From NCBI GenBank assembly GCA_964456615.1, contig CAYWCB010000001.1:1-43264 (forward strand): 43,264 nt of DNA, given 5' to 3'. Source of the stretch: an uncultured Eubacteriales bacterium (GTDB lineage: Bacteria; Actinomycetota; Coriobacteriia; Anaerosomatales; CAVRZR01). Below the pieces are notes generated by a model that saw only the letters and a program-made list of their open reading frames with translations, ran no database searches and was not told the DNA's origin. Positions within the stretch are counted from its first letter, which is position 1. Each line of letters starts with the position of its first letter. Below are positions 9,981-24,297 of this stretch, in pieces. The position numbers and the translations under genes are program-made.

Positions 9981-10421
9981 CTACTCCAAGGGCAGCGGGT
10001 CGGGGCGAGCGCGTGTATTGGCTCTCCCCCGATTCCGAAGCCCGTTGGCCGCGTAGTCGAGCATCTGGCCGACGACCTGGCACCGGACGCGGCTGTCGGA
10101 CGCCCGCTTCACCTCGACGAACGTGGGGAGGGCGTCCTGATCGAGGAAGCGGTGGTCGAGCGACCAGCGACCGGCGGCCCCCTCCTTGTCCGGCGCCGGT
10201 GCCTCGCGCGTCACGAACAGCCGGTGTCCAGGAGCCCCGGAGCCCATCTGATCCCCGCCGAGGAGCGAGGGATGGTCGGCGAGCAGCTGCTGGAGCAGCG
10301 ATTCGGAGTCGTAGTCTGCCTGCGAGAGCGGCGTGAGGTTGTTGTCGCCGTCGATCAGGAAGAATCGAAGCCGGGGTTGCGCAGGTGTAGGCGGGCCTTC
10401 AGGGCTCCTCGCCAGCGCCAC
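9981..10421 (-). pseudogene. truncated, diverged copy A of the NucS-like nuclease gene (5' part only)
   Basis: Positions 10035-10364 align with the 5' third of gene 20902..22050, about 85-90% identical by eye. It encodes FLIDGDNNLTPLSQADYDSESLLQQLL...FVEVKRASDSR...VVGQMLDYAANGLR, then unrelated sequence and a stop. Confidence 0.6.
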
Positions 10422-10428
10422 CGCGCCC

Positions 10429-12843
10429 TCACTCCTCGATGCGATACCCCATCGCTCGATAGCCGCGCAACCGCTTCTCCCACATTCGTGTCAGCATGGG
10501 GTGGGTCTCGTCCACGTAGTCGTAGATGACAACGTCGCGCTTGGCGTCGTGAAGCCGGTGAAGGCGACCCGCGTACTGCTGCAGCGTACCCCGCCACGAT
10601 ATGGGCATCGCGAGGAACAGAGTGTCGAGTCGAGCATCGTCGAATCCCTCGCCAACAAGCCTGCCTGTCGCGACCAGAACGCGAGGCCGGTCCTCAGGAA
10701 CCGCCGCAAGCCTTTCGGCGAGTTCCGCCCGCTTCTTCACGCCCGCACCGCTCGACAGCGCGAAGACGTGCTCCACCTGTTGTGACATTACGCCAGCCAG
10801 CAGGTCCCGGTGTGCCGTGCGCTCTGTCAGGACAATCGATGATCTCCCGTCTTCTGCCGCCTGAGCCACATCACCCACAATCAGCGCGTTGCGTGCGGGA
10901 TCGTCGACGAGCAGGCGGTAGACCTCCTGGATGCTGACGGCTGCGATGGCACTAGCCCCGAATGCCGTTCGGCGAGGCCTGACCACATGCTCAAACGGAC
11001 GCGCGGCGGCCTGCCTCTTCGGATCCGTGCGGTAGCATACGGGTCCACACTGCATCGTGATGATGGGATGGTGGCCGTCCTTCCGGATGGGCGTGGCTGT
11101 CAGTCCGAGCACGTAGCGAGCTCGAACTGTCCGGAGAATCGCCTCGAAGCTGAAGGCCGAGACGTGATGACACTCGTCGACGACAATGTGACCGTACTCT
11201 GCGACGACTGGATCCACGTGGCCATGACGAACGAGCGATTGCATGACCGCGATGTCGACAAGTCCGCCGCGCCGCCGCCTGCCGCCGCCGATCAGTCCAA
11301 TCTCACCTGGCATCTCGAGGAAGGCAGACAGCCGCTCCTTCCACTGCTCCATCAGCTCACGTCGATGAACGAGTACGAGCGTGCTGACACCGCGCTCGGC
11401 GATCAGCTTGGCCGCGACGACTGTCTTGCCGAACGCCGTCTCAGCACTCAGTACCCCCTCTTCATGCGCCAATAGCGCCCGCGCGGCTCGCTGCTGCTGG
11501 GGAGCCAGCTTCCCAGCGAAGCGGGCGAGCAACGGGGTACCCGACTCGCGTTCGTCGACTACCTCAAAACGCGAGCCGTATCCTTCGATAACGTCCTTGA
11601 TCTCGTCGAGACATCCGCGCGGCAGGCCGACGTGCGCATCGAACTCCTGCGCGCAGGCGATCACTCGCGGCTTGTCGTAGGTTGGGAGGCGCATGGCCTG
11701 CGACCGGCGGAATTCGGGGTTCTCGAATGCCGCCAACCGGATGAGTTGGTCAAGCAACGAGTCCGGAAGGCCAGCCTTCTCCACGAAGACCAGATTCGCT
11801 CTCACCGCCCTCACGACCGAGGGGACGCGCCCCAAGAGCTCCGGACGCACGGCGGGCGGTGGCGGGGCAACGACCCAGGGTGTCTCCCCGCTGCGCTCGT
11901 CAGTTGGGTACGTTCGCACGCCGAGCACTCCACTTTCGTCGCTGATGGAGGCCAGCGTTTCATCAAGTTCAGCGGGGCTCATGCGCTTGAGAGTGCTGAG
12001 GAAGGCCCACTGGTCCGGCACCGGCATGAACTCGTCATCGACGAACACTGACCGGCCCAGCGCCCGGGCCTGATGTTGCAACGGAAGCGCAATCAAGCTG
12101 CCGAACCCTCCGCGAGGGAGCGTGTCCTGACTCGGGAACAGTCGGTCGTAGGAGGCTAGAGAAACGACCCGTCGGTGCCGAGCGGCCTGCGTCAGTAGTC
12201 CCGAACCTAGTCTCCGCGCGCACGATGCGTGCACCGGTTCGGTGAAGAACACCCATAGGTGGGCACCCGCGCCCGATCGTGACACCTCGACACATCCCGG
12301 AACGCCTAGTGACGCGCACGTCTCTCTAACCGCTGCGACTTCATCTCGCCAGCCGGAATCGTCGAAGTCGATAGCGAGGAGCCAGCACGTATCGTCGCTT
12401 AGTAGAGGATAGACGCCGATGACGATTGCCCCGCTCAGGTGCTCCTCGACGACCCGCTCATCCAATGCCACCAGCTCGCGGTGCGCACAGTCTGAGCACT
12501 TCACCCGCCGCTTGTCACACAGACCCGAGCGCCATTCGTTCGAACACACCGGCGCGTAGCCGCTCTTCCCGCCCTTGCCCTCCCAGCGCTTCGCATACAC
12601 GTCTTCTCTGCCACGGAACAGCGACTTGAAGAGCTCGATCTTAGCCGAGGGTGACGAGAAGAGCGTGACACTCGCACTTCGATCCAGAGGTGGCTGTGCG
12701 TTTGACGTGCGAGGCGATTCGTCCCCGCCAGCGAGACTGAGTTGCTCGCGAAGTTGCCTGTTCTCTTCTCTCAGAAGTAGGTTCTCACGTCGCAGTGCTT
12801 CGATGGCTGTGTCGTCGAGTCTCGTCATGGGGTTGGGTCTCAT
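10429..12843 (-). CDS. AEP primase-polymerase domain fused to an SF2 DEAD/DEAH helicase
   Basis: N-terminal coiled coil (IEALRRENLLLREENRQLREQL) and Cys cluster CSNEW..C..7..CSDC. AEP motifs LLAIDFDD, SGAGAHLWVFF and SLIALPL. Helicase motifs AETAFGKT, VVDECHH, LGLTATP and QYAGRLHR. Confidence 0.85.
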   Translation of the reverse strand: MRPNPMTRLDDTAIEALRRENLLLREENRQLREQLSLAGGDESPRTSNAQPPLDRSASVTLFSSPSAKIELFKSLFRGREDVYAKRWEGKGGKSGYAPVCSNEWRSGLCDKRRVKCSDCAHRELVALDERVVEEHLSGAIVIGVYPLLSDDTCWLLAIDFDDSGWRDEVAAVRETCASLGVPGCVEVSRSGAGAHLWVFFTEPVHASCARRLGSGLLTQAARHRRVVSLASYDRLFPSQDTLPRGGFGSLIALPLQHQARALGRSVFVDDEFMPVPDQWAFLSTLKRMSPAELDETLASISDESGVLGVRTYPTDERSGETPWVVAPPPPAVRPELLGRVPSVVRAVRANLVFVEKAGLPDSLLDQLIRLAAFENPEFRRSQAMRLPTYDKPRVIACAQEFDAHVGLPRGCLDEIKDVIEGYGSRFEVVDERESGTPLLARFAGKLAPQQQRAARALLAHEEGVLSAETAFGKTVVAAKLIAERGVSTLVLVHRRELMEQWKERLSAFLEMPGEIGLIGGGRRRRGGLVDIAVMQSLVRHGHVDPVVAEYGHIVVDECHHVSAFSFEAILRTVRARYVLGLTATPIRKDGHHPIITMQCGPVCYRTDPKRQAAARPFEHVVRPRRTAFGASAIAAVSIQEVYRLLVDDPARNALIVGDVAQAAEDGRSSIVLTERTAHRDLLAGVMSQQVEHVFALSSGAGVKKRAELAERLAAVPEDRPRVLVATGRLVGEGFDDARLDTLFLAMPISWRGTLQQYAGRLHRLHDAKRDVVIYDYVDETHPMLTRMWEKRLRGYRAMGYRIEE

Positions 12844-22861: not shown

Positions 22862-23772
22862 TCGATGACGTCGATGCCTTCCAGGTACTCCTCGGCCCCA
22901 AAGAGCGTCGGCTGGCCGTAGTGGTCGGTCATCTCCTTCGCGTACACATCCCGCATGACCTTGATCACCGTGTCATTGCGGGAAGCGAAGAGCAAGATGT
23001 ACTGCGTTCCGGCTGTTCCGGGCTTCGCCATCCGAAACGCCACGGTCTTCAAGCCTGAGGGAGAGAAGGCCGCTCGAGCATACGTCGCAGGGTTCTCCAA
23101 GTCCTCTGCGCTCAGGAGTGCGCAATCGTCGCCAAAGAACGCCCGTAACCTGCGCTGATTCGCGGGCGCACGAGACGACTCGCCAATCGCCACGCCATGC
23201 ACCCGACGAATCGATTCGAGCATGTAGTTGAAGAGGACATCGAGCCGCCATGGCTGGGCAACGATCGCTTCAACGCTGGCCCTGTCCAGCTCCACTCCGA
23301 AGGGATCGACGAACAAGAAGCACGGCGAGTTGCGTCCAGGTGTGAAGTCCAGTTGGCGAACAGCGTCGTTCGCGTCCAAGTTGGAGAGCTGCACTTCCGC
23401 GAGTTCATTCGCGTCCGGATGTGCTGCGAAGAACTCCACGATGCGACGCTCGAGCTGGGCGAATCGGTCACGATCCTGCTCCACGCACAGAATGTGAACC
23501 TGGACACCGCACGCTCGAAGACGCTCTGCGTGATCCAGCATCTCCTCGAGGAGGACGATGGATGATCCGCTGATCGGCGCTCCATCTGCCCCTTGCGCCT
23601 GGCCAGTTCCGGCGAAGAGGTCCAGCACGTACCAGTCCCGGTCCACCCACTCGCGACATTGGTCGCCCGACCAGATGGTGAGCCAGACGGCGAAGTACTT
23701 CCGCAAGATGGATAGCTTCTTCGCAGTCTGCGGCCGGTACTGGCCGGTGAAGTACTCGTGCTCCTCAGCCAT
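22858..23772 (-). CDS. tcmP: three-Cys-motif partner protein TcmP-like (Rossmann/methyltransferase-like)
   Basis: N-terminus TAKKLSILRKYFAVWLTIW, then VLDLFAGTGQ (SAM-binding-like motif I), as I recall for the TcmP family. GGAGGGGAG RBS. Confidence 0.65.
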   Translation of the reverse strand: MAEEHEYFTGQYRPQTAKKLSILRKYFAVWLTIWSGDQCREWVDRDWYVLDLFAGTGQAQGADGAPISGSSIVLLEEMLDHAERLRACGVQVHILCVEQDRDRFAQLERRIVEFFAAHPDANELAEVQLSNLDANDAVRQLDFTPGRNSPCFLFVDPFGVELDRASVEAIVAQPWRLDVLFNYMLESIRRVHGVAIGESSRAPANQRRLRAFFGDDCALLSAEDLENPATYARAAFSPSGLKTVAFRMAKPGTAGTQYILLFASRNDTVIKVMRDVYAKEMTDHYGQPTLFGAEEYLEGIDVIE

Positions 23773-23862
23773 GCGATTCTCCCCTCCGGACGGCCCACGA
23801 AGGAGAGTGTGCCACGGACGTGTGACTCGCCGCTGACCAACGCCTTGCCTAGCGTACTGGAA

Positions 23863-24297
23863 TCAGGAGACCGACTCGCCGAACGCCCCGACGAGCGCCG
23901 CATCGACGTCGCCAACGCGCGTCGCGAGGAACGCCTGGATCGACTCGACCGGCCAGTACCGAAGCCCGTTGGCCGCGTAGTCGAGCATCTGGCCGACTAC
24001 CTCGCGCCGGATGCGGCTGTCGGACGCCCGCTTCACCTCGACGAACGTGGGGATGGCGTCCTGGTCGAGGAACAGGTGGTCGAGCGACCAGCGTCCGGTG
24101 GCCCCCTCCTTGTCCGGCACCGGCGCCTCGCGCGTCACGAACAGCCACTGCCGAGGAGCCCCCGAACCCATCTGGTCGCCGCCGAGGAGCGCGGGGTGGT
24201 CGGCGAGCAGCTGCTGGAGCAGCGACTCGGAGTCGTAGTCGGCCTGCGAGAGTGGCGTGAGGTTGTTGTCGCCGTCGATCAGGAAGAGCTCAGGCAC
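23863..24297 (-). pseudogene. truncated copy C of the NucS-like gene (first 143 codons, GTG start)
   Basis: Nearly identical to 21622-22050. The reading frame leaves the homology at 23869 and stops at 23863. The extra N-terminal 90 aa of track ORF 23863..24567 is out-of-frame read-through. Confidence 0.7.

Follow-up and report, generated by a model that had tools for sequence, protein, structure and literature searches.

The window analysed here, a 43,264-nt stretch of contig CAYWCB010000001.1 from an uncultured Eubacteriales bacterium, carries one intact copy of a gene encoding a NucS-like nuclease, hereafter called X, and three partial copies of its 5' part, called C, B and A, all located on the minus strand within 14 kb. 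X forms one border of a variable slot contained within a type I restriction-modification (R-M) operon. The three partial copies, or stubs, are interpreted, at about an even balance of probability, as scars left by serial displacement during cassette turnover, in which homology in the conserved backbone was combined with an illegitimate junction inside the resident X. Cassette-displacement scars at a conserved anchor are a phenomenon of a known kind, and the present instance is clear but fairly ordinary; here the anchor is a NucS-like gene and the slot is embedded in a type I R-M operon.

The gain and loss of defence-island genes without dedicated recombinases is still mostly deduced from patterns of presence and absence. 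The contig retains what appear to be intermediate states of such a process, namely a defined slot, stubs of displaced alleles, a clipped cargo gene and a gene-conversion tract.

Partial copies of X

The copies were compared with a repeat finder and by a blastn search in which the X region was aligned to the window; their coordinates are reported in Table 1, along with those of all other features. Both methods confirmed the four same-orientation copies listed in the first-pass annotation, with blastn E-values for C, A and B against X ranging from 2e-38 to 0, far beyond chance. The identities given there for A and B (85-90%) proved slightly low, and the description of C as nearly identical to X masked a mosaic structure, reported below. 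Alignment in register with X revealed that C and B are homologous to it from the start codon onwards and A from nt 10, and that homology stops at different positions of the gene, 430 in C, 338 in A and 108 in B; the sequences upstream of each copy are unrelated right up to the start codon. All three stubs correspond to the constant 5' module of X only, without its variable 3' end. The in-frame TAG previously noticed in B was found again, as Q29*.

Copies C and A are open reading frames (ORFs) of 144 and 146 aa, which include D73...E87-x-K89 and Q103...Y107, and a 152-aa product is annotated by NCBI at copy C. The motifs kept in these two ORFs, together with the NCBI annotation, are what could be expected if the stubs were retained for a function, either as small nuclease-domain proteins modulating X or as suppliers of expression signals for the downstream cargo. 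This is the least credible of the explanations considered: B stops at codon 29, A lacks four invariant residues and the native start, and residues 149-213, the second half of the conserved N-terminal module, which hold 19 family-invariant columns, are missing from A and C alike. Moreover, no such stubs were found beside X in the other loci examined.

The possibility that copy A is a full-length, degenerate X, plausible from the ~1,140 nt that extend to the next gene, was rejected: a blastx search of 9200-10450 revealed no convincing X homology past nt 338, with a few low-identity alignments running slightly further. When the X region was compared to itself by blastn in each of 170 related loci, extra X fragments were found in none, and the multi-stub pattern was ruled out as a general feature of the X family.

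Allelic origin and decay of the stubs

Over nt 10-299 of the gene, A is 90-94% and B 91% identical to X, the two stubs are 87% identical to each other, and X is 94% identical to its orthologue in locus L001, derived from another metagenome. The divergence of A and B from X equals that of an orthologue from another metagenome and points to a horizontal, not local, origin of the stubs; they are distinct alleles and not fresh local duplicates.

Copy C has a composite structure. No mismatch to X is found over the 298 positions from nt 2 to 299, followed by 10 in the 131 positions from nt 300 to 430 (7.6%; Fisher p = 5.5e-6). Within the latter tract, nine variant bases are internal, and eight of them recur in A, L001, L170, L168 or L169; most are synonymous, and X itself has unique states. 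The pattern indicates gene conversion: the 3' part of C is that of another, older allele of the resident X, whose first 299 nt have been homogenised with X. Since an identical tract of 298 nt adjoins a diverged tract of 131 nt, the copies do recombine. The stubs thus appear to be still recombining.

Relative to X, copy A contains 15 nonsynonymous and 13 synonymous codon changes, has lost the native start and is mutated at four family-invariant residues (R49G, W51R, L75R, R98C). Copy B, the most decayed stub, contains 7 nonsynonymous and 3 synonymous changes, plus the stop. On this evidence, A and B are decaying pseudogenes.

An intragenomic duplication, by which 5' segments would be copied from the resident X through unequal crossing-over or duplicative repair and then diverge in place, is very improbable. 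The common orientation of the copies, their location within 14 kb and the 298-nt identity of C to X would be in agreement with it. However, the mostly synonymous variants of C at nt 300-430 are shared with alleles of other genomes, the unique states being in X; the distance of A and B from X matches that of the L001 orthologue; the sequence preceding each copy is unrelated as far as the start codon; and the AEP-helicase gene, which precedes copy A in the window, adjoins an X remnant in another locus too (L175).

The slot within the type I R-M operon

The gene order in the window is hsdM - hsdS - HEPN - copy C - TcmP - radical-SAM (rSAM) - X - M78/HigB - hsdR - Mrr, with M78/HigB on the other strand. 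hsdM, hsdS and hsdR are all on one strand, and HEPN, C, TcmP, rSAM, X and M78/HigB, none of them hsd genes, are contained between them. Searches of Pfam, NCBIfam and PADLOC agreed with the gene identities proposed at first: hsdM, hsdS and HEPN upstream of C; TcmP and rSAM upstream of X; hsdR, Mrr and an ORF with a weak DUF5678 match upstream of B; an AbiE-like pair and an AEP-TOTE helicase upstream of A.

Metagenome and genome scans based on X yielded mostly distant relatives (40-48%), and the close loci were obtained from context look-ups of exact proteins. At the DNA level, the L001 locus is 85.6% identical to the window in hsdM; homology is then unbroken from the ATG of X to the end of hsdR (22050-16144, 5.9 kb, 80%). 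It breaks exactly at the X ATG and, therefore, X is the right conserved flank of the slot, the left one being hsdM. The related loci, with identities in parentheses, are arranged as hsdM (87%) - hsdS - SIR2 - X (83%) - M78/HigB - hsdR (84%) in L001; as hsdM (86%) - hsdS - a 241-aa protein - X (73%) in L170; and as hsdM (86%) - hsdS - a 202-aa protein, M78 and HigB - AEP-helicase (73%) - X 3' remnant - further sequence - hsdR (73%) - Mrr in L175 and L176. As judged from these loci, the backbone, consisting of hsdM and, after the slot, of X, M78/HigB and hsdR, is conserved, and the cargo between hsdS and X is variable. The comparison of related genomes, proposed at first pass as a check, thus revealed segmental variation in the slot upstream of X, and not one fixed arrangement. 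The statement that each defence module is followed by a copy of X is better expressed as a resident X of the R-M backbone, plus a second site, repeatedly hit by cassette turnover.

The HigB and HTH-M78 pair (19492-20905, plus strand) is kept within the same R-M backbone in L001 and in L175/L176. Among 80 reference-genome loci containing X homologues, hsd genes were found inside the fetched flanks in six; Mrr is close to X in several, and adjoins X homologues in L060 and L091. Distant X homologues are mostly located elsewhere in defence islands.

Cargo modules and junctions

The boundary between rSAM and X (22043-22090) is marked by the loss of the last ~10-17 conserved codons of rSAM. The C-terminus of its product, 'GTLGANGGQHA*', replaces the 'GTPLAN.AF.E.PGCVPV..' of the closest homologues; the gene ends 5 nt inside the X coding sequence, its final codons being derived from the X junction. 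Because the family tail of rSAM is lost there, this boundary is a recombination junction which clips a cargo gene.

Homologues of the TcmP-rSAM pair, with identities of 64-71%, were found in L171-L173, where they are followed by Fic or AbiE and X is not adjoining. TcmP-rSAM was consequently rejected as a natural partner of X and is, from its occurrence in these loci, an independent two-gene module. In L171, TcmP-rSAM-Fic is located directly upstream of an hsdR fragment 72% identical to the hsdR of the window, with TcmP-rSAM two genes away from it. A context look-up of the TcmP of the window itself found nothing.

The AEP-TOTE helicase preceding copy A is a widespread protein of ~800 aa. In L175 (7689-7976) and L176 (5426-5680) the gene is immediately followed by a 3' remnant of X, corresponding to residues 271-376 with 43-46% identity and called as a 72-aa ORF. 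These loci contain the 3' remnant only, intact X being absent: it is the complement of the 5' stub (nt 10-338) which follows the helicase in the window. The two arrangements point to an ancestral adjacency of AEP-helicase and X, which may have been deleted differently in two lineages. In L174, the AEP-helicase is followed by an unrelated gene encoding 362 aa, which was rejected as a variant of X, since hhalign and BLASTP were both negative.

Proposed serial displacement and alternative explanations

In the proposed mechanism, X would be resident in the slot of the type I R-M operon, with a second X site just downstream of hsdR-Mrr. Incoming DNA from a related island would supply a new cargo, accompanied in at least two events by an X allele of its own. 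The downstream end of this DNA would be joined by homology, which for the slot lies in the X-to-hsdR backbone and for the second site, after Mrr, in the flank downstream, and its upstream end illegitimately inside the resident X, so that a resident 5' stub would be left upstream of the new module. The product in the slot would be HEPN-C followed by TcmP, the clipped rSAM and X; at the second site it would be B, then AbiE, AEP-helicase and A, then downstream DNA, with B probably the oldest stub and A the next. A later conversion tract would have made C and X identical at nt 2-299. A mechanism of this type, homologous on one side and illegitimate on the other, would resemble homology-facilitated illegitimate recombination (HFIR). 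The 298 identical nt, directly repeated around 1.8 kb, would also make TcmP-rSAM prone to precise, RecA-dependent loss, regenerating hsdS-HEPN-X. The earlier suggestion that several modules arrived with their own copy of X is in better agreement with the data than Campbell-type capture, given the orthologue-level divergence of the stubs and the X remnant beside the AEP-helicase in L175/L176.

Several points weigh against serial displacement. That C and X do not differ at nt 2-299 calls for a separate gene-conversion step. All three illegitimate junctions are confined to the first 430 nt of X, for which, given junctions within X, a probability of (430/1149)^3, ~5%, is calculated; they are therefore more clustered than random joining predicts. 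The process does not appear to be common, as extra X fragments were absent from the 170 loci and L175/L176, retrieved later, contain a 3' remnant only. Finally, the evidence on the locus comes from a source contig that was found once.

Site-specific integration of the cargo was excluded. In agreement with the first-pass annotation, no recombinase gene was found among the window ORFs scanned, and neither integrase nor transposase was detected in those of sizeable length; no tRNA gene was found in the window. The six junctions share no att-like or hairpin motif: the only candidate, a marginal 19-nt match (z = 3.6), is out of register and was rejected. The exclusion follows from these results and from the ends of the stubs, which at 108, 338 and 430 are not fixed.

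A repeat pattern similar to that of X was found on the minus strand at 32023-36857 for a DUF429 gene (Pfam PF04250), which is present as a full copy, a 5' piece, a near-full diverged copy and a 3' piece (Table 1). The full copy and the 3' piece, identical over 373 nt starting from the stop codon, enclose a nucleotidyltransferase gene and a gene encoding a 338-aa protein, a pair which occurs twice in L174. The repeat period is 2245 nt for this unit (33172/35417) and 2247 nt for the C/X unit (21622/23869), and the two cargos are unrelated. The matching periods could be a coincidence, or could reflect size-limited transfer or circularisation, or an effect of the assembly graph.

The first-pass annotation had proposed repeated Campbell-type capture, in which an excised or linear piece, made of cargo and a 5' end of X (for example TcmP, the clipped rSAM and nt 1-430 of X, 2247 nt), would be circularised, enter the resident X by a single homologous crossover and possibly be excised again. 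The arrangement C-cargo-X is exactly the product expected, with direct gene-end repeats flanking heterologous DNA and one intact copy kept; the DUF429 unit would be a second case with mirror geometry, in which a perfect 3'-end repeat flanks a two-gene cargo; the two units are nearly equal in length, and a recombinase is not needed. Nevertheless, this explanation is considered rather unlikely. A single crossover cannot yield a C copy identical to X at nt 2-299 and different at nt 300-430, so that conversion would still be required, and serial capture into one gene would place the intact X last, whereas it ranks second among the four. Nor does the order B(108)-cargo-A(338) agree with this model, because the upstream stub should equal in length the fragment borne by the circle, and the flanked-repeat pattern is not found for B and A, which are moreover old, diverged alleles. 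Recombination between copies was thus borne out for the 298-nt tract of C and X; the mosaic and the position of the intact X speak against repeated capture.

An improbable extension would regard the repeat-flanked two-gene units as mobile cassettes devoid of recombinase, circularised at ~2.25 kb by homologous recombination of the host between the gene-end repeats and re-entering, by a single crossover, any genome provided with the anchor gene, which would always be kept intact. If so, the near-identical unit size would reflect a size-limited step of transfer or circularisation.

The locus might also be produced by assembly or by a mixture of strains, the contig threading a loop of the assembly graph (a-R-b-R-c in place of a real a-R-c plus another molecule) or merging two strains whose slot cargo differs. 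The window is a complete contig which was found once and seems to derive from a metagenome-assembled genome; its exact repeats, 298 and 373 nt long, exceed the usual k-mers, it is odd that the two periods, 2245 and 2247 nt, should be equal, and such a graph fits an integrated and a separate, circular b-R unit alike. Against this, C and X differ at 10 sites within nt 300-430, and A and B, 8-9% diverged, are cut at unique junctions which have no k-mer in common, either among themselves or with X. Being diverged and unique, the junction sequences of C, A and B are not producible by repeat collapse and must be present in real molecules. In addition, the backbone recurs with other cargos in independent contigs from other samples, in which an X remnant is also found beside the AEP-helicase. 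An explanation of this type is quite improbable, and a pure assembly artefact unlikely.

The protein encoded by X

At the sequence level, X has no match in Pfam, NCBIfam, PHROGs or PDB. More than 7,900 homologues, ~377-381 aa in length and all unnamed, are found in bacteria and archaea; D73, E87, K89, Q103 and Y107, which form a PD-(D/E)XK motif, are invariant in 32 of them used for comparison. The AlphaFold2 model of X has a predicted local distance difference test (pLDDT) score of 90, and its top Foldseek matches are NucS (2vld) and EndoMS (5gke), with probabilities of 0.92-0.99, yet weak E-values of 1.7e-3 to 1.5e-2 and TM-scores of 0.2-0.3. The PADLOC profile PDC-S11 matches X partially (E 4.7e-11), residues 11-242 of X being aligned to positions 12-216 of the 358 of the profile. 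The designation NucS-like, used from the start, agrees with the fold search and the profile match and is a fair label for the predicted protein.

PDC-S11 has recently been named Madara, a modification-dependent, single-gene defence protein with a NucS-like nuclease domain, linked to BREX (bioRxiv 10.64898/2026.09.05.749240). By its profile match X is a relative of PDC-S11, a distant one which is not filed as a member since the profile is not matched over its full length. The two proteins are alike in the NucS-like PD-(D/E)XK domain and in the linkage to a methylation-based system, BREX for Madara and type I R-M for X. They differ in the C-terminal domain; moreover X is known here from its sequence and predicted structure. 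X may be regarded as a candidate type IV-like partner of type I R-M systems.

The identity of X to its closest orthologue, in L001 (6764-7909), is 91-94% in nt 1-600 but 70-73% in the remainder, and the homologue P0021 is 80% identical to X in the first 230 aa and has an unrelated C-terminus. X is modular, its 5' module being constant and its 3' module variable, and both comparisons suggest domain swapping of a presumed target-recognition module in the family. Given the higher identity to L001 of the 5' module (91-94% vs 70-73%), this is the best local substrate for homologous recombination. The family, with a constant nuclease module and a putatively swappable C-terminal one, has no Pfam or NCBIfam model.

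Comparison with known systems

Integrative islands bring with them a replacement end of their target gene, and generate att duplications at the ends of tRNA or protein genes. The locus described here is similar in that direct gene-end repeats flank the cargo and the target gene is intact, and tandem accretion of such islands also gives several repeats. It differs in the lack of an integrase, in repeats of 108-430 nt which are diverged and have no fixed crossover point, and in the non-terminal position of the intact gene.

A serial displacement model invoking HFIR has been described for the effector-immunity arrays of type VI secretion systems (T6SS) and for Rhs orphans (PMC5361080). As in these arrays and in the orphans of contact-dependent growth inhibition (CDI), a conserved flank would act as the homologous anchor, modules arriving from other strains would displace the resident one via an illegitimate junction, and truncated older alleles pile up in one orientation, as repeated pieces which can recombine later; Rhs and X are also alike in combining a 5' module that is constant with a 3' module that is variable. 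The geometry in the window is the mirror image, with the anchor downstream and the constant 5' stubs upstream. Unlike Rhs/CDI orphans, the stubs are devoid of alternative variable ends and of immunity genes, and are therefore not redeployable; furthermore, toxin delivery is not the role of the locus, which is an anti-phage island or type I R-M operon.

HFIR itself (de Vries & Wackernagel 2002; Prudhomme et al. 2002; Meier & Wackernagel 2003, as cited in PMC5361080; see also PMC3240628) combines one homologous and one illegitimate end, by which foreign DNA is set beside an anchor without a recombinase, as proposed here. It has been defined experimentally for transformation and conjugation; for the window it is read from the end products only.

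Defence genes other than hsd embedded in type I R-M operons are already known, as described in reports on TgvAB in VPI-2 (PMC11411939) and on embedded genes (bioRxiv 10.1101/2024.01.29.577857). The window resembles embedded R-M, BREX and Hma genes in the location of non-hsd defence genes between hsdS and hsdR, on the operon strand, and in the pairing of a type IV-like nuclease with R-M, which would provide complementary coverage. To these systems it adds a defined slot, flanked by hsdM and X, and stubs recording turnover. A term search of Payne et al. 2024 (bioRxiv 10.1101/2024.01.29.577857) returned no mention of recombination, remnants, truncated genes or hotspots.

Other features of the window

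The features identified within the window are reported in Table 1.

Table 1. Coordinates, strand and assignment of the features of the window. Sequence identities refer to comparison with X for its copies, with the full copy for DUF429, and with the loci indicated for the other genes.
Feature	Coordinates	Strand	Description
X, intact	20902-22050	-	382 aa from ATG; NucS-like PD-(D/E)XK; right conserved flank of slot
Copy C	23869-24296 (= X 21622-22049)	-	428 nt, 97.9% identity (blastn)
Copy C as ORF	23863..24297	-	X nt 1-430, GTG start; stop just past end of homology
Copy A	10035-10363 (= X 21712-22040; feature 10035..10364)	-	329 nt, 92.1%; X nt 10-338
Copy B	14137-14244 (= X 21942-22049; feature 14137..14245)	-	108 nt, 90.7%; X nt 1-108
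hsdM	26132..27679	-	Left conserved flank of slot; Pfam N6_Mtase, HsdM_N; DNA 82-86% identical to L001, L170, L175
hsdS	24949..26142	-	Specificity subunit; Pfam Methylase_S; only 28-35% aa identity to hsdS of L001, L170, L175
HEPN (RiboL-PSP)	24428..24952	-	Slot cargo overlapping hsdS stop; Pfam PF18735, E 8.6e-7
TcmP (three-Cys-motif partner)	22858..23772	-	Cargo gene 1; NCBIfam TIGR04474 E 1e-35; PADLOC PDC-M30A/M41A
rSAM partner	22043..22861	-	Cargo gene 2; Pfam Radical_SAM; 3' end clipped, reads into X start
Helix-turn-helix (HTH) + M78 peptidase (ImmA/IrrE-like)	19820..20905	+	Backbone, convergent with X; Pfam; PADLOC PD-Lambda-2_B E 4.6e-31; 78% to L001
HigB-like toxin	19492..19830	+	Backbone; Pfam; 90% identical to L001 counterpart
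hsdR	16145..19318	-	End of conserved backbone; Pfam; 84% aa identity to L001
Mrr-type restriction nuclease (PDC-S02)	15088..16110	-	Pfam Mrr_cat; PADLOC E 4e-142
Small ORF upstream of B	14397..14846	-	Weak DUF5678 match, Pfam E 0.0027, below curated cut-off
HTH/DUF6922 (AbiEi-like antitoxin position)	13642..14079	-	First cargo gene after B; Pfam
AbiEii nucleotidyltransferase toxin	13014..13658	-	Pfam PF08843 E 5.6e-16
AEP-TOTE primase-polymerase fused to SF2 helicase	10429..12843	-	Pfam E 4.9e-96
DUF429, full copy	~35417-36139	-	PF04250
DUF429, 5' piece	36656-36857	-	Repeat of full copy
DUF429, near-full diverged copy	32023-32643	-	88% identical
DUF429, 3' piece	33172-33544	-	100% over 373 nt vs full copy; begins exactly at stop codon
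DUF6036-like nucleotidyltransferase	33619-34221	+	Cargo between DUF429 full copy and 3' piece
338-aa protein	34208-35224	+	Second cargo gene between DUF429 copies

The closest relatives of the window are uncultured Actinomycetota-type sequences, and its G+C content is ~65%. Ten of its proteins were looked up in a public protein collection: six are present, each on this contig only, and four have no exact match. Apparent frameshifts at 1-3200 were evaluated as a possible signature of long-read errors and rejected, as the frame plot resolves separate genes.

Upstream of hsdM, the region 28101-31913 encodes a 349-aa protein, a 465-aa protein without family match and an AAA_11/AAA_30 helicase-like protein. 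The first two of these genes (78% and 84%) are found downstream of hsdR-Mrr in L175 (14355-15652), as if the order of the island were circularly permuted. A direct duplication of 487 nt, with 86% identity, is formed by 32674-33160 and 38596-39082 and overlaps the region of a HicB-like antitoxin; toxin-antitoxin pairs (Gp49/HI1420-like, PIN) are located nearby, which adds to the evidence of segmental shuffling. The 768-aa product of a GDSL-lipase-like ORF is encoded on the plus strand at 40619-42925; direct repeats inside this ORF, with periods of ~975-1059 nt (D6, D8, D9), look like domain duplications within one gene.

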